Of a stretch of DNA of 64,000 bases, positions 47,442 through 60,129 are shown piece after piece. The DNA is from an uncultured Bacilli bacterium. Its GTDB lineage: Bacteria; Bacillota_I; Bacilli_A; RF39; UBA660. Numbering within the stretch: position 1 is the stretch's first letter; each line of letters opens with the position of its first letter. Under the pieces are notes generated by a model. It worked only from the letters and a program-made list of their open reading frames with translations. It did no database searches and was not told the DNA's origin. The position numbers were made by a program, and so were the translations under genes. The stretch is taken from assembly GCA_934131005.1 (NCBI GenBank), contig CAKOYV010000001.1:13216-77215 (forward strand). The letters are read 5' to 3'.

Positions 47442-47468
47442 CAGTTAACACCCTTAGGCTGTTACCTG
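47442..47468 (-). other. Conserved GC-containing hairpin 3' of target gene 1
   Basis: cagTtaaca-cccttaggc-tgttacctg pairs 8 of 9 bp. It is a copy of the perfect hairpin after target gene 2, preceded by the same gtagtggagta spacer. Confidence 0.5.
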
Positions 47469-47482
47469 ATATACTCCACTAC

Positions 47483-48460
47483 CTAACTTGTAGATATTTC
47501 CATAGGATAGTCCTCTGTACCTACTCCTAAGTATTTGAGCCCAGACTTGAGAGTCACTATTGGACGAAGGGCCCTGCTATTGCTGCTCTCACGAAATGAA
47601 GAGTTGCTATAGTAATACATGTCGCTGTTGTACACGGAGTCGTCCGAGGAGCCCAAGGAGTCGATCAAACATCCACCCCAGCTATAGGTAGTCGTGGATT
47701 TATAGCCGTAAAAGCGTGACGCTATCCAATATAAAGATGATAAACCTTTCACATTAGTAGCTTTTAATGTACCTATTGCATTTTTTACTAAATCATAGTC
47801 TTTTTGATATAGTTTGTCTCCTCCTCCTTGACTTTCTACTGGATTACAACTTCCTCCTGTTGAACAAGTCCATGGTGCTGGTTTAGTAAATTTAGATGTA
47901 TCTGTTATATATTTTGTTTGACCATTATAACCAAAATATCTCGAGCCTTTCGTATAAGTACTATTCTCATATTGACTAGCTAAAACATTCAAATATCCAA
48001 CTAAATTTTGATACCCTGTTTTTCCGCTAAAATATACTTCTGTCGTTGATGTATGCGCACTTATAACATCAACCGTACCATCGCTATTTAGGCTTATTAC
48101 TCGCCATAAATTTAATTCTTGCGGATTAATTGTCTGAGTACTGCTATATCCTGTTTTTGAGGTATCTGTTGTATATGATGATTTGGTCGGAGTCATTTTG
48201 ACATAATCGCCTACGGCTAAGGTATCTTTTTTAGTTAAACATACGTAACCATTTGGACAAGTTGTACTATTATTAATTTTAGTATTTAATTCATCAATAG
48301 CTCCTTGTACATCACCACTAGTTAGAGTACTATTACTATTATTATAAAAGACAGTATTAGATTTATATTTAGTTGCTGCTGCTACTGATATGCCAGTTAA
48401 TAATATTCCTAAAATAATACCATAAACTATTTTATAATTATAACTCTTCTTTTCTTTCAT
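47483..48460 (-). CDS. DGR target protein 1 (signal-anchored, C-terminal variable domain)
   Basis: 325 aa. The start overlaps the RT stop. It is highly similar to ORF 50509..51477 and to the C-terminus of the 2275-aa protein, except in the last roughly 60 residues (YWIASRFYGYKSTTTYSWGGCLIDS...ALRPIVTLKSG), which the TR-related GC-rich segment encodes. Confidence 0.8.
   Translation of the reverse strand: MKEKKSYNYKIVYGIILGILLTGISVAAATKYKSNTVFYNNSNSTLTSGDVQGAIDELNTKINNSTTCPNGYVCLTKKDTLAVGDYVKMTPTKSSYTTDTSKTGYSSTQTINPQELNLWRVISLNSDGTVDVISAHTSTTEVYFSGKTGYQNLVGYLNVLASQYENSTYTKGSRYFGYNGQTKYITDTSKFTKPAPWTCSTGGSCNPVESQGGGDKLYQKDYDLVKNAIGTLKATNVKGLSSLYWIASRFYGYKSTTTYSWGGCLIDSLGSSDDSVYNSDMYYYSNSSFRESSNSRALRPIVTLKSGLKYLGVGTEDYPMEISTS
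47562..47713 (-). repeat. DGR variable region VR1
   Basis: GC-rich island in an AT-rich gene. It aligns with the TR, sharing anchors CTTCGTCCA, TCCACGACT, ATC.AC.TCC and GGCTC. Most differences fall at TR adenines. Confidence 0.75.
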
Positions 48461-49406
48461 TTAATTTACCTCCCCTGGTTATATTTTTATAATTAATATA
48501 ACTAGATAAATAACTATTTAAATTTATTTTACCAGTCTCATATAAATATTTTTTATATTTAAATCTTCTAAAAGAATTTCTATATTTAGAAAATTTATTA
48601 TATTTATTTCTTCCAAGAAATATAATATTATTAGTATTTTTATATAATCTAGTTTTAGAATTTAATTCTAAATCTTGACTAACTAGAAATTCTTTTATTT
48701 TTTCTAAACAATATTTTAAATATTGTTTAGAAGGATGAAGTAGGATAAAATAATCTTGATATCTTACATAATATTTTATTTTTAATTCTTCTTTAATATA
48801 ATGATCCATTTCATTCAAATAAAAGATTCCTAATATTTGGCTAGTCATAAACCCTATACTAAGAGTAGTATCACTATCTAATATTTTAAATATTATATCA
48901 ATAGCATCTTTATCTTTTATTTTCCTTTGTAATTTTTTTTTTAAGATATCTATATTAATACTAGCGAAATATGCTTTTATATCACACTTTAAAAGATAGT
49001 AACTATTATATTTTTTATTTAATATACCTCCATATTTATAATATAAATCTAGAGCATATTTTGTTCCTTTATTAGGTCTAGATGCACAATTAGCATCTAT
49101 TAAACAAGGTATAAGTGCCTCATATAATATATATCTACTTACTAAATAATTCACTAACTTATCATACATATTTTGACTAACAATTCTTCTTTTCTTAGAA
49201 TCATAAATATAAAATACATTGTATTTACCAACTTGATAAGTTTTATTTTTCAAATCATGATAAGCTCTACTAATATAGATAGCTTTATAATTAATAAAGT
49301 TATTTACTTTATTTTTATTCTTAGTATTTCTACACATTTCATCAAAGCACTTCATTATATTTTCAAATTTATATATATTTTTATATAAATTATTTTTTCG
49401 TCTCAT
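48438..49406 (-). CDS. DGR-type reverse transcriptase with a non-canonical catalytic box YQDY
   Basis: 322 aa. RT motifs RRIVSQNMYDKLV, SRPNKGTKYAL and LKCDIKAYFASI. The DGR-specific motif SIGFMTSQILGIFYLNEMDHY is present. Motif C reads YYVRYQDYFILL, where YxDD is expected. Confidence 0.85.
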   Translation of the reverse strand: MRRKNNLYKNIYKFENIMKCFDEMCRNTKNKNKVNNFINYKAIYISRAYHDLKNKTYQVGKYNVFYIYDSKKRRIVSQNMYDKLVNYLVSRYILYEALIPCLIDANCASRPNKGTKYALDLYYKYGGILNKKYNSYYLLKCDIKAYFASINIDILKKKLQRKIKDKDAIDIIFKILDSDTTLSIGFMTSQILGIFYLNEMDHYIKEELKIKYYVRYQDYFILLHPSKQYLKYCLEKIKEFLVSQDLELNSKTRLYKNTNNIIFLGRNKYNKFSKYRNSFRRFKYKKYLYETGKINLNSYLSSYINYKNITRGGKLNERKEEL

Positions 49407-49496
49407 ATATCCACTTTCATAAAATTACTAACAGATATATTTTAATTAAATTTATAGAATAATTCTAAAGGACTTAGTCTATTTCTTCATTATCTC

Positions 49497-49518
49497 TAAT
49501 ATAAGATTACTTATATTA
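49497..49518 (-). other. 9-bp hairpin in the TR-RT spacer
   Basis: taatataag-atta-cttatatta lies about 20 nt 3' of the TR on the minus strand. Confidence 0.4.
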
Positions 49519-49537
49519 CCGCAGTTTGAAGAAGTTG

Positions 49538-49658
49538 CTGGACGAAGGACATTGTTGTTGTTGTTCAAAGAGCCCGAGGAGTTGATATAACGTCCGTTCC
49601 AGTTATAGTTAGTCGTGGAGTTATAGTTAGTCGTGGAGTTATAGTTATAATAGTGTAC
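49538..49658 (-). repeat. DGR template repeat (TR)
   Basis: Noncoding segment between avd and the RT. In the VR frame it reads TAT TAT AAC TAT AAC TCC ACG ACT AAC TAT AAC TCC ACG ACT AAC TAT AAC TGG AAC GGA CGT TAT ATC AAC TCC TCG GGC TCT TTG AAC AAC AAC AAC AAT GTC CTT CGT CCA. It is AAC-rich, as is typical of TRs. Confidence 0.8.
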
Positions 49659-49679
49659 ACTAGTCTAAACAACTAAGCC

Positions 49680-50020
49680 CTATACAGATGACTTTCGCCA
49701 TTTTATTACATATCTTAATAAATAATCTAAACTCTCCCCAAATTTTAAATATCTTTTAGAATTAATAATATGTTTGTTATAACAAACATTTATTAAATAA
49801 TCTAAATATTTAATATAAGAAATTAGTTTATCCTGAATATCAATTCTTTTCTCTAAATTAAAAGTTGTATTAGCTTCATAACTAATCTTTATCATTTGAT
49901 AAGAAGTAAACATATTTCTTTTTTTAATTCTATCTCTTTATGAGGAAAATTAGTTAAATATTTATCAAAATTATCAGTTAATTTTTTTACTAACTCTATT
50001 ACATAAAACTTATCTTTCAT
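49680..50020 (-). CDS. avd: Accessory variability determinant (Avd), split by a frameshift at an A7 run
   Basis: The ATG at 50020 overlaps the upstream stop and opens MKDKFYVIELVKKLTDNFDKYLTNFPHKEIELKK, the FPK-E-type first helix pair of Avd/23S-IVS four-helix-bundle proteins. That frame ends shortly after the A7 run at 49919..49925. The -1 frame continues RNMFTSYQMIKISYEANTT...FGESLDYLLRYVIKWRKSSV (ORF 49680..49913). Combined length is about 112 aa. Confidence 0.7.
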
Positions 50021-50431
50021 ATAATAAATTCTCTACTTCTTCTAATTTAGTATTATCTTTTAAAAGATATTTCTTTATTTTATCTATCCTATTTATTATA
50101 TCTATATAATTATTAGCTTTTATTAAAATATTTTTATAATTATTTTTATTTTTATAATTTACTTTATCAACCTCCTCATAATTATGAACTTTATCTATAA
50201 TAATATAATTTATATTTCTATTTTCTAGTTTAGATATTATTTTATTATAAGAGACAATAGGAAAACCACATGATTTATTATTAGCAGGCACATTTCTAAT
50301 TTTATATCCAAACAAATAAGAAATTATATCAGCATCATCATTATAACATTCATAAAAAGTTCCTTTTTTAATAATAAAACATAATTAGGAAATAATTCTT
50401 TTAAATTATTAACCATATTTATTACTGCCAT
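50010..50431 (-). CDS. MutS-domain-I-like DGR accessory protein, split by a frameshift at A_AAA_AAG
   Basis: The ATG at 50431 opens MAVINMVNNLKELFPNYVLLLKK. The -1 frame continues GTFYECYNDDADIISYLFGYKIRNVPANNKSCGFPIVSYNKIISKLENRNINYIIIDK. The joined sequence is colinear with MutS domain I (LLFFRMGDFYELFYDDA...MAGIPYHA...YLAKLV...VAICEQ). Confidence 0.65.
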
Positions 50432-50465
50432 ATTTTCATTATTCCTTTCTTTAATTTTTTTGCCC

Positions 50466-50496
50466 ATCAGGTAACACCCTTAGGCTGTTACCTGAT
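50466..50496 (-). other. Perfect 11-bp hairpin 3' of target gene 2
   Basis: atcaggtaaca-cccttaggc-tgttacctgat lies 13 nt after the stop codon. No T-tract follows it. Confidence 0.55.
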
Positions 50497-50508
50497 GTAC
50501 TCCACTAC

Positions 50509-51477
50509 CTAACTTGTAGATATTTCCATAGGATAGTCCTCTGTACCTACCCCTGAGTATTTGAGCCCAGACTTGAGAGTCACTATTGGACGAAGGGCAT
50601 TATCGATGCTGTACTCGTCAAACTCAGAGTCGTCATAGGTATAAAAGTCGTCGTTGAGGTCCAAGGAGCCCGAGGAGTCGATACTACGCCCATACCAGCT
50701 ATAGTAAGACGTGGAGTCATAGTAATAACCACGTGTCGCTATCCAATAATAAGATGATGAACCATTCACATTAGTGGCTTTTAATGTACCTATTGCATTA
50801 TTTACTAAATCATAGTCTTTTTGATATAGTTCGTCTCCTCCTCCTTGACTTTCTACTGGATTACAACTTTCTCCTGTTGAACAAGTCCATGGTTCTTGAT
50901 TAGTAAATTTAGATGTATCTGTTATATATTCTGTTTGACCATTATAACCAAAATATCTTGAGCCTTTCGTATAAGTACTATTCTCATATTGACTAGCTAA
51001 AACATTCAAATATCCAACTAAATTTTGATACCCTGTTTTTCCTCTAAACCATACTTTTGTCGTTGATGTATGTGCACTTATAAGATCAACCGTACCATCG
51101 CTATTTAGGCTTATTACTCGCCATAAATTTAATTCTTGCGGATTAATTGTTTGCCTATTGCTATATCCTGTTTTTGAGGTATCGGTTGTATATGTTGATT
51201 TCGTTGGTGTCATTTTAACATAATCGCCTACATCTAAAGTGTTTTTCTTTTTCAGTTTTAAACATACAAGCTTTTTAGGGCATTCTTTATTTTTATCTTT
51301 ATACAATTCAACTAAAGCATCTTGCACATTAGTAGATTTAAGTCCACTATTAGTATTATCATAAGTAAGATCACTACCACTACCAACATAAGTAACAGCA
51401 TAAACAGTAGTAATAGAAATAAAAATACCTATAAATAAACCTATTAATATTTTATAATTCTTCTTTTTCATAAACAT
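50509..51477 (-). CDS. DGR target protein 2 (signal-anchored, C-terminal variable domain)
   Basis: 322 aa and a paralog of target 1. The variable tail is YYWIATRGYYYDSTSYYSWYGRSIDSSGSLDLNDDFYTYDDSEFDEYSIDNALRPIVTLKSG. Confidence 0.8.
   Translation of the reverse strand: MFMKKKNYKILIGLFIGIFISITTVYAVTYVGSGSDLTYDNTNSGLKSTNVQDALVELYKDKNKECPKKLVCLKLKKKNTLDVGDYVKMTPTKSTYTTDTSKTGYSNRQTINPQELNLWRVISLNSDGTVDLISAHTSTTKVWFRGKTGYQNLVGYLNVLASQYENSTYTKGSRYFGYNGQTEYITDTSKFTNQEPWTCSTGESCNPVESQGGGDELYQKDYDLVNNAIGTLKATNVNGSSSYYWIATRGYYYDSTSYYSWYGRSIDSSGSLDLNDDFYTYDDSEFDEYSIDNALRPIVTLKSGLKYSGVGTEDYPMEISTS
50589..50731 (-). repeat. DGR variable region VR2
   Basis: GC-rich island that aligns to the TR. In my hand alignment of the colinear 72 nt, 11 of 15 mismatches fall at TR adenines. 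Confidence 0.75.
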
Positions 51478-52088: not shown

Positions 52089-52190
52089 TTAATTTGAAAG
52101 ATTATAAGGATTAGTCTTTGATCCATCTCCAGAGTACTTAATTCCAGATTTCAGAGTCACTATTGGTCGAAGAGAACTACCCTTATTTTT
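52089..52190 (-). pseudogene. 3'-terminal remnant of a fourth target-type gene
   Basis: Reads KGSSLRPIVTLKSGIKYSGDGSKTNPYNLSN*. The DNA CTTCGACCAATAGTGACTCTGAAATCTGG matches the segment just 3' of VR1 and VR2. Homology stops abruptly at about 52190, next to the IS remnant. Confidence 0.65.
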
Positions 52191-52199
52191 TCTTTATTT

Positions 52200-53200
52200 T
52201 TTAAGTGTTTTTCTATATTTTTATTACCCCTCTTTTTTTAGGATATTTTTTATAGAAATTTTACTTTTTATCAAATTTTATAAGAAAAATCCTGAAAAAA
52301 TTAAACTTAGATATATTTACCGTAAATTCAATATTGGTTTACCAAAGTTAACAAACAATTATCGGGAGTTTATTCAATCTCCTATTGACTTATCTCGTGC
52401 TTATTCTTCTCAATACATCATTGGATTATGTCTTACTTATCATGTTAATTATGGTCTTTCCTATAGACAAACTTCCTCTATTTAAAGATATTCATGAAGT
52501 AAATATATCTTATAAAACCGTAGAAAATTATTGTAAAGCTGCATCTTCTATTGTAAATCCAGTTTTAGAATTTTATCCATACGAATTACCAGATACCATT
52601 GCAGCTGATGAAACATATATCAAAATACATTGTTACATCATATAGAGTATTTGAAAAACGTGATTCTTTATCTTCAATCAAGGCTACTTATTCAACATTA
52701 GTTAAATATGATAAATTACCTGAATCTTTAAAAGTGATTTCTGATGGTAATCCTATTTATAATGTGGCTGTTCAGTATTGGTATCAAAATGGCTTACCAT
52801 TTAAACTTTATCAGGTCATTGGACTTACAAATCAGGGTGATACTTCTAAAGAATATAGAAGTCAAAAGCAAATCATTGAACGTTTTAATCATACTTTAAA
52901 GTATTATTATCGCCCTAAAGGTGGATTTACTTCTCTTAATAATGCCAATAGTTACATGGTGTTATTTGCCACTTATAATAACTTTTCAAGACCAAATAAT
53001 GCCTTAGAATGGCAAAATCCAGTTCAACTTGATGAATTATCCAATATTTCAAATATGCCAAATAAATGGATTGAATTATTAAACCTTGGTTATAAATATT
53101 CTGATATTTATTGTTAAGTTTAACCTTTTAAAAAAATTACTTACTTAACTTTTTTCATCATGTCCTTTTTTATTAATTCTATTTTCAAAGAGCTATTTTT
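52200..53200 (+). mobile_element. Degenerate IS6-like insertion sequence (transposase broken by a stop and a frameshift)
   Basis: Plus-strand fragments: SSQYIIGLCLTYHVNYGLSYRQTSSI*, KDIHEVNISYKTVENYC...IAADETYIKI (DDE first-Asp region), then ISDGNPIYNVAV...QIIERFNHTLKYYYRPKGGFTSLNNANSYM. The order is colinear with IS26-type Tnp as I recall it, but the segment around the second Asp is missing. The element ends were not identified. Confidence 0.5.
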
Positions 53201-53301: not shown

Positions 53302-56300
53302 TTAATTTGCTGATAATTTATAAGGATCTTCTGCTGTACCACTTCCTGTATATTTAAGGCCTGATTTTAAAGTTACAATAGGACGTAAATAATTTGATCT
53401 ACCTACACTATGAAAAGTACCATTAACTAGTCCCATCAACATATCTACATTAATACTATCTTTAGAGATAATTCTACCACCAACATCCCACATAGGAGGT
53501 ATATCAGTTTTAAAAATATATAATCTAGAAGATACCCAATATGAAACAGAATCACTACTTGCCACTGTTGATGCTTCTAAAGTTTTTAAAGTACTATTTA
53601 CTAAATCATAATCTTTCTTATATAGTGTATCACCACCACCTTGACTCTCTACTGTACAACCATCTTTATCAGTAGAACAAGTCCAAGGAACTCCTCTCTT
53701 ACTAATTTTTGATGTATCGGTTATATATTCTGTTTGACCATTATAACCAAAATATCTTGAGCCTTTCGTATAAGTACTATTTTCATACTGACTTGCTAAT
53801 ACATTCAAATATCCAACAAAATTTTGATATCCCACTTGTCCATTAAAATATATTGATGTACTTGATACATGCTCACTTATAACATCCACTGTTCCATCGC
53901 TATTTAGGCTTATCACTCGCCATAAATTTAATTCTTGCGGATTAATTGTTTGCGTACTACTATATCCTGTTTTAGATGTATCTGTTGTATAAGAGGATTT
54001 AGTTGGTGTCATAGATACATAATCACCCAAATTTAACCAATGAGCATAATAAGTAGATACACTTGAAGTTACCGTTGAAGTCGATTTTATTTCATTACCA
54101 CCACTAGCTTCAGTATACCATCCTAAAAATTTAGCACCTGGCATACTAGGAGATGATAAGGAACCAACACTACTACCAATTTCTTTAGATATTTCACTTG
54201 AAATCTTTATATCACCTATTTTTAAAGTTGTAGTAACACCATCCATAGCACCGCCAAAATTAAAATTGAAATACATAGTACTACCAGTACCAGTAAATTT
54301 TAAAGTCTTAGTAACAACACTAGAAGTTGCACTTGTTGGAATAGTTTCATTAACTACAGAATTAGCTATATTTGTATCATCTTCCACTTTATTTGTAATT
54401 TGATACATAATTCCACTAACACCATCAATACCACTTAATGCTGTATACCCATTTGGATTTTCATAATCAAAAGAAATTGTATATTCTACTCCCTGCACAG
54501 TATCTATTGGTAAATATATATTTTCCCACATTGCATCACCTGACACTGCAATTGTATTCATATCCGAGCTAGAATTATAAGAAATGTTAAATCTACTACT
54601 ATATGTTTTTTGCCAATTATTCATATTATTATTTTTAAAATTATAATCAAGTTTCAATGTTTTAAATCTTGTATCTAATTTATCTATTGCACACTGCACA
54701 TCATCACAATCTACTCCTGTTTTAGAATTATCATAAGAGAAATCTTCAGCTTTTAATCTCTTAGCCTTCGCAGTATATGTAGCATTTGAAGTTAAATTCA
54801 AAGAATTCCCTGCATTTCCAACTAATGTACCACCAGAATTATACCAACCAGCTACTATATAACCACTAGCAGGTGTTATTGTTGGTAATGTAATAGAACA
54901 ACTAGTTGTTCTATAACTACTACCGTTAGTAGTTGAATTAATATTACAAGACAAACTAGTAGATCCTATACTACTAACATTACTATTTTCTTTAGTAAAT
55001 GTCGCTGTATTAGTACCATTATAAATAGCATAATATTTAATTTGACTTGTATTAACTGTTGAAGTTACAGTAGTACTACTAACAGAAGTAGATATTCCTT
55101 TATAAGTACTATTATTAGGCCCTTTACTAGAACTAACAGCATTAGGAATACTAATAGCTCCTTGCCCAACTACACTTCCAGAATAATTAGCAGTCTGTGT
55201 GCCACTAGCACTCACTGTTGCTTGAGCACTACCATTATAATAATAGAAAGTTGCAGCTACTGACCTCGTATATAAACTATATAAACTAGTAGCCGTACTA
55301 GTTGCTGCCGCCGCTACACTATTATAACTCTTATTAGCAGTATTATTACTAGTTGCATATCCCGCAAAAGTCCAAGTAACAGAGTTATTAGTCCAATTCC
55401 CATTACTAAGATTGGAAGTACCTGTACTACTAGTGCTAAGAACCGTATTCATTGCATTATTACTAGTAAAGAAAGCGTTTCGATAAACCGTCCTGCTAGT
55501 ACCACTAGAATATTCCGTTATAGATTTTCTATAAGCAACATAATAATTTTTTGCCCCCGATAAAGTTACTGTAGAATTCGTACTAATATTCATTGTGTTT
55601 ATATTCCCATATCCTACATATACAGAACCATATTGAGAAGTAGTATCTTTAAAAGTAGACAAAGGAACAGTCGCACTACAACTAGTATTATTATTATACA
55701 AATCACAACTAGAACTAACATTCTTAATACCACTATTATAATAATAGAAAGTAGCTGCTACGTTCTTTTTATATATAGCATATAAAGTTATATTACTAGT
55801 TCCCATCTTAAGAGAATCTAATTTACTAGTAGCACTTTTATTAGTATTCCAACCTACTAAAGTATAACCTGTCTTTGGCGTACAAGTTTTAGTTAAATCT
55901 ACACTAGCATTATAATTTACTTTAACACTAGCTATAGTACCACTTCCACCATTAGTAGTACAATCATAATTAACATTATAACTATTAATAGTAGAGGCAA
56001 AATTAGCAGTAATAGTACTAGCAGCATTAACGGTACCACTTGCTGATGACCAACTACTAAAACTAGTTGTATAGCCTGTTATACTTTTAGCTGTTGCTGT
56101 TACACTTCTAGAATCATTTAAGGTAAGTTTATTACTGCTAGTAGTATAAGTTCCACCCTTAGGAACTATATATTTAGATGCCGACACTGTACCATAATTA
56201 GTATTATTGGATTTAATATTCAAGTTATAAAATTCTGCACTAACCTCCGTATTAGAAGCTCCTACAGTTCCTGATTTAGTGTAATTACTAATATTAGTAC

Positions 56301-59300
56301 CATCTACTTTTACACCATATATCTGATATGGAACTCCATAATAATTTTGAGTCCAATAATCTGTAACATAACCCTTATCAACATTATTTACTCTAAACCC
56401 TACTGATATTCCATTACTAGTAGCAGTACTACTATTAATACCAGTACCATCTAAATATAAATTAAGATCTAAATAAACTTTATTCGCTGTCCAATGAGCA
56501 TAATATGTTGCATTAGCATTTGATACTGTCGTTGTACTAGTTACTTTAGTACCTCCAACAGGAGCTGTATACCAACCATCAAAAGTATAACCTGTTCTAG
56601 TTAAAGTCTTCAAACTATCGCCTAAAGTAGAACCGTAAGTTAAACTAGAAGTAGTAACAGGTTGACTTCCTTCTCTTATATCTAACGAATGAACGTATAA
56701 TTCATCTGAAGCATTCCAACTACTACCATTTAAATAAAAGACAAAAGCATAATATGAATTATCATTCGCCACAAAAGTATGAGTTACTCTCTGCCAAGAA
56801 GTAGTAACATTAACATTAACTTGACCTCCTTGTTCATCACCTATTTTCAAAGTTTTATTACTACTAGCTTTAACATAAACACTCCAAGTATAAGTCTTAC
56901 CAGCAGTAAGTTTACTGTTTGGAGCATAATAAACTCCACCACTAGTACCAGCATTCATTGTAAATTTAACAACATTACCACTCCTAGCAGCATCCTCATC
57001 TACATTACTCTTAGCACTAGGACAAGTTGCCGCACAACTATATTTAGCTGGATAAAATGAATCATTCCATAAATTATCACTATAATAATTTTGATCGTAA
57101 GTAATATTATATTTATTAACTGTCCACATAGCATACAAAACTAACTTACCATTACTAATACCATATTGTCCATCAATATATGCCCATTTGCCACTCCAAC
57201 CAGTCCAATTATATCCATCACTAGTACCATCTGATTTAGTTGTCCACCCTGCAAATGTATAACCTGTCCTAGTAAAAGTATTAGTTTTAATAGTAGTATT
57301 ATCATCATAATTTACCGTATGAGAAGACATGGTACCACTACCATCATTAGCATTATAACTTATAGTATAACTATTAGCCTTCCAAATAGCATATAAATTT
57401 ACATTTCCTTGAGTTGCCAAATTTTTAACACTAGCTCCCCCAACATAAGTATTTTCACTAGCATTTAATTTATAAAATTTTACATTTTTAATTGTTGCAG
57501 AACAACCAGGCATTGCTCTAAATAAAACATATTTATTTACATTACCATCTCCACTAGATCCTAATGTAAAAGTTACTGTATAATGCGTGTAATTACTAGA
57601 TAAAGGAATCGAATTAAAACCGTCAGCATTAGTACCATTACCACCAGTAGATGAAGTCCAACTTGCAACTTTCAAATAATTACTAGCCCCATAAAAATAA
57701 TTATATAAATTGCCACTTCCCTTTACATCAACTTCAAGCCTATATTTTTCGCCTGAACTAAATGGTGCATTTATCGTATACTGTTTAAAATCTGAATATC
57801 CTGACTCTCCCGAAGCTTTTGAACCACTAATTTCAGACGTATCATTTAAAAGTGCCTTCGTCGAACTAGAAGTTGACCATCCTACAAAAGCATAACCTCT
57901 TTTAGTAAAAGCATTATTTTTAATAGTAGCTGTACTATCATATTTTACAGTTTGAGAATCCATCGTACCAGTTCCACCATTAGCATTATAAATTATTGTA
58001 TAATCATTAGCACTACATCTAGCATATAAAGTTACATTACCTTGTACAGCAGTTGGGGTATAACTAGCACCTGATGCATAACTAGTTCCACTACCATCAC
58101 TCTTTGTATTCCAATTACACGTATAACCAGTCTTAGAAACAGTTGGTAAATTAAATGCAACAGGAGTCCAATTAGCTGTCAAAGTAACAGTAGACCCATT
58201 AGTTGGATTCAAATTCTTAAAATATTTACTTTTAACTAAAGTTGATCCATTACTCCAACTATTTGTAATACTAGAAGTACTATCTCCATATTTAGCCGTA
58301 CTTGTATTAATATTACTAGCCGTCCATCCATTAAATGTCTGAGCCTTTGAAGTAGCTAAACCAATAGTTGCTCCAGTACCATTAGCATCCCCTGTAGCTT
58401 TAATTGTCTTAGTAGGATTATCTATAGTAATATTACTATCATAATTACCACTACTAGGTGTATTAGTTCCTTTAGTACCATTATTCAAAGTATAATTAAT
58501 ATTATATGTATTAACATTCCAATTACCAGTTAAAGTTCCATTACCAGCCCCAAACCTATACACATAACCACCATAATTTTCATTACTTATATAAGTATTA
58601 GCTGTTACATCATAAACTGATAAATTCTTCATATCCATATCAACTTCACCAGTAGTTCCTGGAGCAATACCAAAATAAATTTCTACACAAGGATTAATAT
58701 TATAACTATTACCACTTAACGTAAGTGTAGTCCCAGTAAAAGTTCTTTCCATAGAATATTCTACCCAACCATCAGTTACCCCTACATTTTTAAATGTCCA
58801 TCCTGAAGAACCCCAATCATTATTAAATGCCGAATGTCTTACATGAGCATAAGCAAAACCAGAACTCTTCCTAACTCTCATCATATATGTAATTCTATAT
58901 TTATGACCTGAAGTATAAGCATAATTATTAAAACGAATAAATGGATAAAAATTACTACTCCCTGAATTATTAAGATTAAAAGCATAATTTGTATAACTAG
59001 TTCCATCCGTATCTGTCTTAACAGTTCTAGTTATTTCAGTACTCTTAGAAATACTAACTGCACTAGCATTTCCTCTCATAAGTGTTCCACTACCACTAAG
59101 ATTCCATTTATTAAACGTATAACCCGTCCTAGTAGCTGGTAATAATCCATAAGTCGTATTATAATTTTGTGAAACATTAACTGTACTAGTAGAATTATTA
59201 TAAGTACCACCATTAGGATTAATAGTTAAATTATATTTATTAATACTCCACTTAGCATATAAAGTACTAGCTTTATTAAAATATTTATTAGTAAAATTAC

Positions 59301-60129
59301 TAGTTATGTAACTATTAGTACCAATTAAATTAACTCCTCCACCATTAGAAGCCGTATAATATCCTAAAAATGTATAACCCGTTCTAGTAGGATTAGTTAT
59401 TCCATTACTACTAGTAGTCATTAAAGTAGTCTTAGCCGTACTATCTTTATAAATACCCATACCATACTTCTCATATATCATCGAAGTACCACCTTTATTA
59501 CTATCAGCACCCTGATTATCAAGAGTAATAGGATATATAGGTACAGCCTGATCACATAACTCTAAGTTAGCTTTAATACTAGCATTTTGCATATTACTAC
59601 TATCACTACTATTACCATCTATATAAACTATAAACCTATATTCTTTAATCTCTTCTGGTTCTATATAAATATCACTATAAATAGTATTACTACCAACACT
59701 TAAATTACTAAAATTACCACTCTTTAATACTTTACTATAACTATCTCCTACCTTCTCAAGTAATACCCACTTAAAGCCTGTACTCTTTAACGCATCAGAC
59801 ATAGATATAATATTTATCTTAGCATACATCATATATGTATCACTCTTAGTATTAGTAGCCGTATAATCACTGTATATTAAATACTTACCATAATTACTAT
59901 CTGCATAATAACTACTATCTGTATAATCTAATATAGGACTCAAATTAGCACCTTCAATAGAGGCACTTTTTTTATAAACATATTTTAAACCACCATCATG
60001 AATACCAACATCAACATTTGTATTAGCACTCTTCCAAACATAGTAGGCAAATGTTAAAGATAATAAACAAAGAATAAAAACAATTACTCCAACTATTGTT
60101 CCAAATAGTTTTCTCTTACCTTCTCCCAT
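53302..60129 (-). CDS. Giant (2275-aa) surface protein: TasA-like signal anchor, many InlB B-repeats and CBM-like modules, C-terminal DGR-target-type domain (undiversified)
   Basis: N-terminus LFGTIVGVIVFILCLLSLTFAYYVWKS. There are at least 8 Listeria-Bacteroides repeats (for example TRTGYTFLGYYT...LYAKW, TRTGYTFAGWTT...LYAMW, TRTGYTFDGWYTAP...YYAHW). The last roughly 250 aa are homologous to the two DGR targets (GDYVSMTPTKSSYTTDTSKTGYSSTQTINPQELNLWRVISLNSDGTVDVISEH...YLRPIVTLKSG). Confidence 0.85.
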   Translation of the reverse strand: MGEGKRKLFGTIVGVIVFILCLLSLTFAYYVWKSANTNVDVGIHDGGLKYVYKKSASIEGANLSPILDYTDSSYYADSNYGKYLIYSDYTATNTKSDTYMMYAKINIISMSDALKSTGFKWVLLEKVGDSYSKVLKSGNFSNLSVGSNTIYSDIYIEPEEIKEYRFIVYIDGNSSDSSNMQNASIKANLELCDQAVPIYPITLDNQGADSNKGGTSMIYEKYGMGIYKDSTAKTTLMTTSSNGITNPTRTGYTFLGYYTASNGGGVNLIGTNSYITSNFTNKYFNKASTLYAKWSINKYNLTINPNGGTYNNSTSTVNVSQNYNTTYGLLPATRTGYTFNKWNLSGSGTLMRGNASAVSISKSTEITRTVKTDTDGTSYTNYAFNLNNSGSSNFYPFIRFNNYAYTSGHKYRITYMMRVRKSSGFAYAHVRHSAFNNDWGSSGWTFKNVGVTDGWVEYSMERTFTGTTLTLSGNSYNINPCVEIYFGIAPGTTGEVDMDMKNLSVYDVTANTYISNENYGGYVYRFGAGNGTLTGNWNVNTYNINYTLNNGTKGTNTPSSGNYDSNITIDNPTKTIKATGDANGTGATIGLATSKAQTFNGWTASNINTSTAKYGDSTSSITNSWSNGSTLVKSKYFKNLNPTNGSTVTLTANWTPVAFNLPTVSKTGYTCNWNTKSDGSGTSYASGASYTPTAVQGNVTLYARCSANDYTIIYNANGGTGTMDSQTVKYDSTATIKNNAFTKRGYAFVGWSTSSSTKALLNDTSEISGSKASGESGYSDFKQYTINAPFSSGEKYRLEVDVKGSGNLYNYFYGASNYLKVASWTSSTGGNGTNADGFNSIPLSSNYTHYTVTFTLGSSGDGNVNKYVLFRAMPGCSATIKNVKFYKLNASENTYVGGASVKNLATQGNVNLYAIWKANSYTISYNANDGSGTMSSHTVNYDDNTTIKTNTFTRTGYTFAGWTTKSDGTSDGYNWTGWSGKWAYIDGQYGISNGKLVLYAMWTVNKYNITYDQNYYSDNLWNDSFYPAKYSCAATCPSAKSNVDEDAARSGNVVKFTMNAGTSGGVYYAPNSKLTAGKTYTWSVYVKASSNKTLKIGDEQGGQVNVNVTTSWQRVTHTFVANDNSYYAFVFYLNGSSWNASDELYVHSLDIREGSQPVTTSSLTYGSTLGDSLKTLTRTGYTFDGWYTAPVGGTKVTSTTTVSNANATYYAHWTANKVYLDLNLYLDGTGINSSTATSNGISVGFRVNNVDKGYVTDYWTQNYYGVPYQIYGVKVDGTNISNYTKSGTVGASNTEVSAEFYNLNIKSNNTNYGTVSASKYIVPKGGTYTTSSNKLTLNDSRSVTATAKSITGYTTSFSSWSSASGTVNAASTITANFASTINSYNVNYDCTTNGGSGTIASVKVNYNASVDLTKTCTPKTGYTLVGWNTNKSATSKLDSLKMGTSNITLYAIYKKNVAATFYYYNSGIKNVSSSCDLYNNNTSCSATVPLSTFKDTTSQYGSVYVGYGNINTMNISTNSTVTLSGAKNYYVAYRKSITEYSSGTSRTVYRNAFFTSNNAMNTVLSTSSTGTSNLSNGNWTNNSVTWTFAGYATSNNTANKSYNSVAAAATSTATSLYSLYTRSVAATFYYYNGSAQATVSASGTQTANYSGSVVGQGAISIPNAVSSSKGPNNSTYKGISTSVSSTTVTSTVNTSQIKYYAIYNGTNTATFTKENSNVSSIGSTSLSCNINSTTNGSSYRTTSCSITLPTITPASGYIVAGWYNSGGTLVGNAGNSLNLTSNATYTAKAKRLKAEDFSYDNSKTGVDCDDVQCAIDKLDTRFKTLKLDYNFKNNNMNNWQKTYSSRFNISYNSSSDMNTIAVSGDAMWENIYLPIDTVQGVEYTISFDYENPNGYTALSGIDGVSGIMYQITNKVEDDTNIANSVVNETIPTSATSSVVTKTLKFTGTGSTMYFNFNFGGAMDGVTTTLKIGDIKISSEISKEIGSSVGSLSSPSMPGAKFLGWYTEASGGNEIKSTSTVTSSVSTYYAHWLNLGDYVSMTPTKSSYTTDTSKTGYSSTQTINPQELNLWRVISLNSDGTVDVISEHVSSTSIYFNGQVGYQNFVGYLNVLASQYENSTYTKGSRYFGYNGQTEYITDTSKISKRGVPWTCSTDKDGCTVESQGGGDTLYKKDYDLVNSTLKTLEASTVASSDSVSYWVSSRLYIFKTDIPPMWDVGGRIISKDSINVDMLMGLVNGTFHSVGRSNYLRPIVTLKSGLKYTGSGTAEDPYKLSAN

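Follow-up and report, generated by a model that had tools for sequence, protein, structure and literature searches.

A MutS-like DGR accessory gene interrupted at an A_AAA_AAG heptamer is very probably a frameshift pseudogene in a decayed element

A reading frame that breaks exactly at a slippery sequence raises the question whether the gene is recoded, misread by the sequencing process or simply lost. Such a break is found on the minus strand of the stretch of DNA analysed here, 64,000 nucleotides from an uncultured Bacilli bacterium with a GC content of 28% (hereafter called the window). There, an MSL (MutS-like) accessory gene of a DGR occupies positions 50010..50431, with codons 1-23 in one frame and codons 24-140 in the -1 frame. 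The ATG at 50431 starts MAVINMVNNLKELFPNYVLLLKK, and the frame proceeds via the codons tta-tta-tta-aaa-aag into an A_AAA_AAG heptamer at 50369..50363, which lies in the X_XXY_YYZ phase of slippery heptamers. In the zero frame a stop is reached after 12-14 further codons (ELFMNVIMMMLI, then the stop); the -1 frame reads GTFYECYNDDADIISYLFGYKI... (GTFYECYNDDA...) for 117 codons up to the stop at 50010-50012, and the fused product carries the junction peptide LLLKKGTFYECYNDDADIISYLFGYK. An earlier note on this DNA, made from the letters alone, had described an ORF that starts at ATG 50431, meets A_AAA_AAG and continues in the -1 frame, which proved exact to the nucleotide. The start at 50431 is the true one, as every homolog begins with MAVINM. 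The start chosen by the ORF finder, ATG 50467, was rejected as spurious; it is located within a hairpin 3' of the preceding gene. This inverted repeat (50466..50496; catcaggtaac, agcctaagg, gttacctgatg) has an 11-bp stem and follows directly 3' of the stop of target gene 1. Another inverted repeat is present at about 47442-47468.

The fused 140-aa product matches the Pfam family MutS_I (PF01624) with 42.1 bits (E 1.1e-10, cut-off 20.6) over profile positions 4-93. Taken by itself, the piece downstream of the junction reaches 27.5 bits and covers positions 24-93 only; hence the homology spans the junction. The earlier note had taken the gene for a DGR accessory gene of the MutS-domain-I type whose product is colinear with MutS across LLLKK|GTFYE, and both points are correct. 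Altogether 41 MSL homologs were found, most of them with PF01624 in one unbroken reading frame of about 135-140 aa. As a side observation, a distant MutS-domain-I-like stretch (29% identity, E 1e-7) is present on a contig of Wolbachia sp. wTex (L042, 3001-3273). In the comparison with Taq MutS (1ewq, E 1e-4), FPNYVLLLKIGTFYECYNDDA is aligned with YPDYLLLFQVGDFYECFGEDA and the Phe-X-Glu motif, which is the mismatch-contact motif of MutS, is preserved in MSL. The AlphaFold model of the intact conspecific protein P0047 (pLDDT 92.1, pTM 0.83) predicts an alpha/beta domain at the N-terminus and, after it, a helical hairpin that ends the protein (residues 99-138), and the best 50 PDB matches of this model are all MutS or MutSbeta structures, aligned on domain I with an rmsd of 1.5-2.4 A. 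When placed on the model, the lesion of the window gene falls into the turn between beta1 (18-23) and beta2 (26-30), just ahead of F26-Y27-E28.

The window gene is thereby confirmed as a member of a family that is already in the literature, namely the MSL accessory genes of "Architecture D" DGRs, whose size ranges from 112 to 283 aa (Wu et al., Nucleic Acids Res 2018, PMC5758913). The statement in the earlier note that small MutS-like ORFs occur among DGR accessory genes was thus right. Msl has also been noted in Bacteroides DGRs, and host MutS cuts retrohoming 5-10 fold in B. ovatus (bioRxiv 10.1101/2024.11.15.621889). Since host MutS lowers retrohoming in B. ovatus, a competition between Msl and MutS over the cDNA/VR heteroduplex is plausible.

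Is the interruption a true property of the DNA, and if so, which state came first? The window and the records L001 and L002 share the allele TTAAAAAAGGAACT at the MSL site, and several cohorts contribute 9 further metagenome records with the identical A6G (L027-L035; L001 is the same as L030, and L002 the same as L033). The length of the A6 run was hereby assessed across independent assemblies, whose contig names follow the naming styles of several short-read assemblers (k141_, NODE_..._cov, scaffold_). At the protein level, the 47-aa frameshift product (P0049) is recorded on 57 contigs and the N-fragment of avd on 107. Agreement of this kind across assemblies indicates that A6G is genuine and not a miscall. 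The earlier note had allowed for a simple sequencing error hiding an A7, which is not what the assemblies contain.

Intact alleles are available from the same species and from a sister species. The conspecific record L025 (97.7% identical over 2.4 kb) and the conspecific record L026 both encode an unbroken 140-aa MSL. At the MSL site L026 has TTAAAAATAGGAACT, L025 has TTAAATATAGGAACT and the sister species G003 has TTAAAAATTGGTACT; L025 and L026 read TTA AA(A/T) ATA GGA ACT, which corresponds to L-(K/N)-I-G-T, and sister species show AAA ATT GGA or GGT within a single intact ORF. Relative to L025, L026 and G003, the window carries a 1-nt deletion at 50364, by which the T of ATA (Ile23) is gone, and removal of this T from AAAAATAGG yields AAAAAAGG, exactly the sequence of the window. 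By both the reading frames and the allele comparison, the heptamer (50363..50369, minus strand) is therefore the 1-nt deletion site that splits MSL. The alleles point to a derived single-T deletion as the cause of the MSL break, and not to a contracted A7. The A6 run, and with it the slippery heptamer, arose only when the T was lost from a Lys/Ile-rich and AT-rich context, which makes the heptamer a by-product of this deletion. The idea of an A6/A7 length variant, also raised in the earlier note, does not survive this comparison: no A7 allele was found, and with AAA ATA GGA in the intact alleles it is a T and not an A that was lost. Nor are the two parts separately conserved as independent genes; the orthologs are intact single 140-aa ORFs. 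The same two conspecific records further contain an intact 113-aa Avd, a TR without the 45-nt deletion described below and Asp at position 219 of the RT, which is complete in L025 (322 aa); the contig of L026 ends inside the RT. In the sister species G003, the entire syntenic cassette is intact.

The heptamer was examined for the features that accompany programmed frameshifting. Within the 93 nt downstream of it, no stimulatory RNA structure was found (MFE -6.6 kcal/mol, z = +1.37), and 190 of 200 shuffled sequences fold at least as well as the native one. Likewise, no GGAGG- or AGGA-like element resembling an SD sequence is present in the approximately 30 nt upstream (TTATTTCCTAATTATGTTTTATTATT), and the shift site is not conserved in the orthologs, which are single ORFs with K-I-G, or carry a stop codon in the case of L003 (see below). 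The genome encodes both tRNA-Lys(CUU) and tRNA-Lys(UUU); in E. coli dnaX, the shiftiness of AAG is tied to the absence of the CUU isoacceptor. The occurrence of an A_AAA_AAG is in itself statistically unremarkable, as in-phase heptamers are abundant in this 28%-GC genome, with 221 A_AAA_AAG and 673 A_AAA_AAA in 1,346 stop-to-stop ORFs of at least 100 aa. The programmed ribosomal or transcriptional slippage proposed in the earlier note is thus not supported, given the missing structure, the missing SD-like element, the lack of site conservation and the origin of the heptamer in a deletion.

Two genome-wide screens address whether other genes are split in the same manner. A search for ORF pairs bridged by A/T runs returned 52 hits, nearly all of which are ordinary gene junctions, and was discarded as non-discriminating. 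A second screen of the 1.24-Mb genome, for an in-phase A6[A/G] with a continuation in the -1 frame, gave 18 candidates, and none but the two DGR accessory genes proved to be genuinely split; three candidates that lack a nearby start codon were rejected, their downstream frames being low-complexity antisense artefacts. That no further genuine gene is split at an in-phase A-run speaks against both systematic homopolymer miscalling and lineage-wide recoding. CGG-type +1 recoding was dismissed as well: neither lesion contains a CGG, and the shift needed is -1.

The MSL gene is embedded in a full DGR layout, which extends over 47483-51477 of the minus strand in the order target-MSL-avd-TR-RT-target. 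All DGR parts are still present and the target genes are open. Target gene 1 (50509..51477) contains VR1 at about 50620-50770 (core 50650-50723), and target gene 2 (47483..48460) contains VR2 at about 47600-47755 (core 47633-47706). Between them, avd (49680..50020, minus strand) is a pseudogene as well, with intact alleles elsewhere. It has suffered a 1-nt deletion at about 49914, by which GAA ATT ATG became GAA ATA TG; an in-phase A7 run (49919-49925) precedes it by 6 nt, and the deletion is common to the window and the sister lineage L003. Slippage at the A7 was considered as the cause of the avd break and rejected, given that the deletion aligns within ATT ATG, 6 nt past the run, and that the intact alleles share the A7. 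The fused avd product gives a weak match to DivGenRetAVD (E 0.008), and an intact Avd of 113/114 aa is encoded in L025, L026, G003 and L004-L007.

The template repeat (TR; 49530..49665, minus strand) is degenerate, with a 45-nt deletion, an 18-nt duplication and non-adenine substitutions. The 45-nt internal deletion at about 49556 is also present in L003; the 18-nt tandem duplication (49630-49647) is polymorphic and absent from L003, L029 and L035. Compared with VR1, the window TR shows 13 mismatches at A, 6 at non-A positions and 48 gap columns, so that the two are no longer colinear, whereas in the intact L026 all 21 of 21 mismatches between TR and VR1 fall on TR adenines and no gap is needed. 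VR1 and VR2 of the window both retain the 45 nt that are missing from the TR, and neither has its 18-nt duplication. Because the VRs show neither the deletion nor the duplication of the TR, they have not been overwritten by retrohoming since the TR took its present form. The reverse transcriptase gene (48438..49406, minus strand; RVT_1 match) is of full length (322 aa). Its catalytic motif reads YQDY instead of YQDD owing to D219Y (codon 48750-48752), and H87Y and I24M are found in addition. All three columns are invariant in the other five sequences of a six-RT alignment, and the substitutions are confined to the lineage of the window, with the polarity taken from L003, L025 and L026. From general knowledge of the YxDD motif, the D219Y enzyme would be inactive. 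As far as sequences can tell, the MSL break is accompanied by four or more further inactivating lesions and by VRs that have become frozen.

Further DGR-related material was seen in the same genome. A second DGR (G000 contig C13, L021:1755-6398) looks intact; it comprises a 742-aa target with a lectin-like C-terminus, an avd of 119 aa, an RT of 376 aa with YMDD and an MSL of about 135-155 aa that is 42% identical to that of the window. At 52107-52179 of the window, a fragment resembling the 3' end of a target (71% to 50530-50602) lies beside broken transposase-like ORFs (52385-53117) and is probably what is left of a fourth copy of the target. A 2275-aa Flg_new-repeat protein (53302-60129) ends in a target-type domain, in which the VR-equivalent region has no TR match.

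What do the populations tell about the activity of the element? The ten available sequences of the 4.2-kb cassette show just two kinds of difference, a swap between the target genes, and whether the 18-nt TR duplication is there. Neither VR1 nor VR2 varies among the 10 sequences, where an active DGR would be expected to produce variation. These ten sequences are nearly identical, come from few cohorts (several of them Hadza-related) and represent independent sequencing experiments, not evolutionary replicates; probably they derive from one circulating clone. VR1 of L026 differs from that of the window at 36/137 positions, 29 of which are TR adenines, and this pattern reads as the trace of past DGR activity. 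The target swap involves six positions in the paralogous targets (51043-51084 and 48026-48067, offset 3017 nt), which occur in differing combinations. L001 differs from the window at six positions, which are located within these mid-gene segments; DGR activity was rejected as the cause of these differences, the positions being homologous mid-gene positions of the targets and not VR. The swap is paralog gene conversion or exchange, or else the choice of an assembler within a repeat.

The sister lineage L003 (98.8% identical) is informative in another respect. Its MSL is in frame at the site (AAA ATA GAA), and codon E12 is changed from GAA to TAA, in addition to G24E at an invariant Gly. The alignment marks L003 as an independent MSL knockout. 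Different knockouts of MSL in two sublineages that share the broken avd and TR bear the mark of relaxed selection, and do not resemble the pattern of a conserved recoding signal. Along L003:96-519 (versus window 50431-50010), 12 private substitutions are counted in the 423-nt MSL, whereas avd has none and the 969-nt RT a single one, and 11 of the 16 codon differences between the MSL genes of L003 and the window alter the residue or bring a stop. This excess in L003 could reflect very relaxed selection or a recombined segment.

Damage is also seen elsewhere in the clade. In a related species with the same MSL protein, three assemblies (L004, L006 and L007) have the RT in two calls of 224 + 101 aa, and a fourth (L005) has it intact (322 aa). 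In L008 (4001-4644), the C-terminus of MSL is altered (143 aa) and avd has just 78 aa, and the MSL of G011 was matched only in two separate pieces (query residues 1-53 and 76-140). Taken together, these calls make DGR decay appear recurrent in the clade.

On this basis the competing explanations of the MSL break can be weighed. One of them takes the split as functional: -1 frameshifting at A_AAA_AAG in MSL and at A_AAA_AAA in avd would keep MSL and Avd at reduced levels and thereby throttle the DGR. In its favor, both sites carry perfect in-phase heptamers and require the same -1 shift, they are the sole two such cases genome-wide, and the allele is widespread. Both heptamers moreover lie inside the respective -1 rescue windows, a coincidence of about 1-3% by a naive estimate, which gives leaky expression a small probability. 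We nevertheless regard functional frameshifting as very unlikely, since the alleles of conspecifics and sister species are plain in-frame genes, the MSL heptamer was made by the deletion, downstream structure and upstream SD-like element are absent, and the tRNA-Lys(CUU) renders AAG less shift-prone, judged by E. coli dnaX. L003 furthermore ruins the same gene by a stop codon, and with the catalytic Asp of the RT lost, the TR non-colinear and the VRs frozen, nothing that works is left to throttle. For the related idea that the two heptamers let a few percent of ribosomes restore both accessory proteins and so preserve a throttled or conditionally re-activatable module, we see a very slim chance.

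Two more readings concern the A-run itself. Homopolymer miscalls are a common artefact, and the true gene might be intact with an A7 or with the T in place. The recurrence of the same A6G in 9 further records from differing samples and, by contig names, assemblers, together with the lack of other A-run-broken genes in the genome and an ancestral A5-T-A instead of a longer homopolymer, reduces the probability of such an error to a negligible one. Reversible phase variation or transcriptional slippage that toggles MSL ON and OFF would fit a homopolymer near the start of a gene, phase-variable tracts being a known type of switch. It is extremely improbable here: the tract is A6 in 10/10 sequences and shows no length variation, a collection of about 15 billion proteins does not contain the exact A7-type fused MSL protein, and ATA stands in the intact alleles. 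Appreciable RNA-polymerase slippage is known from runs of about 9 or more, a length that A6 does not reach, and the remaining cassette is irreversibly damaged.

We are thus highly confident that MSL in the window is a frameshift pseudogene within a decayed Architecture-D DGR. The order of events is readable from three sublineages, one intact, one with damaged avd and TR and one fully decayed. Shared and private lesions show that the frameshift in avd and the 45-nt TR deletion came first, as L003 has both. In the lineage of the window, the MSL deletion, the D219Y substitution in the RT and the 18-nt TR duplication came later, and L003 instead acquired its independent MSL nonsense codon and G24E. 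We infer that the damage to avd and TR stopped mutagenic retrohoming, by which selection on MSL and RT was relaxed and the VRs were presumably frozen in their last diversified state. In MSL, a single T was deleted from ATA (Ile23) in the beta1-beta2 turn, three codons ahead of Phe-X-Glu. Without a frameshift, the gene can yield a 37-aa N-terminal peptide only, perhaps together with a fragment of 101 aa in which the mismatch-contact hairpin is missing. Trace amounts of spontaneous -1 slippage at A_AAA_AAG may occur, but would have no working system to serve.

As a recoding candidate, the MSL split is unimportant, the gene being a pseudogene. The three sublineages of one gut species are of interest for the order in which a DGR decays, with avd and TR hit before independent hits in MSL and RT, which implies that MSL is retained only while the DGR is active. 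Retention restricted to the active element in turn argues, if indirectly, for MSL as a genuine working component of DGRs. The clone with the broken DGR (clusters P0049/P0052) is recorded on 57-107 contigs, and the intact conspecific alleles (P0045/P0047) on one contig each. With so many more records of the dead-DGR clone than of its intact relatives, the loss of diversification is evidently not costly in this niche and is compatible with ecological success. The intact elements in L025, L026, G003 and C13 are compact MSL-avd-TR-RT cassettes that are usable for probing the role of Msl, and the intact MSL-avd-RT of C13 shows the working arrangement.

Compared with known systems, the site shares with that of dnaX the identical heptamer in the correct phase and a downstream ORF in the -1 frame. 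It differs by the absence of a stem-loop, an SD-like element and conservation in orthologs, by the origin of its heptamer in a deletion and by the presence of tRNA-Lys(CUU). From the MSL family, the window gene departs in that its frame is split by a 1-nt deletion within a defunct cassette, and in its host, an uncultured Bacilli MAG lineage with a small genome (1.24 Mb, 28% GC). In all other respects it resembles the family: it encodes a small MutS-domain-I protein, whose 140 aa in the fused form lie within the range of 112-283 aa, it is adjacent to avd and upstream of TR-RT with targets flanking, and it has kept the G-x-F-Y-E motif. A final parallel concerns the DGR of the Bordetella phage, in which a hairpin/cruciform lies downstream of VR; the inverted repeat of the window is similarly placed.
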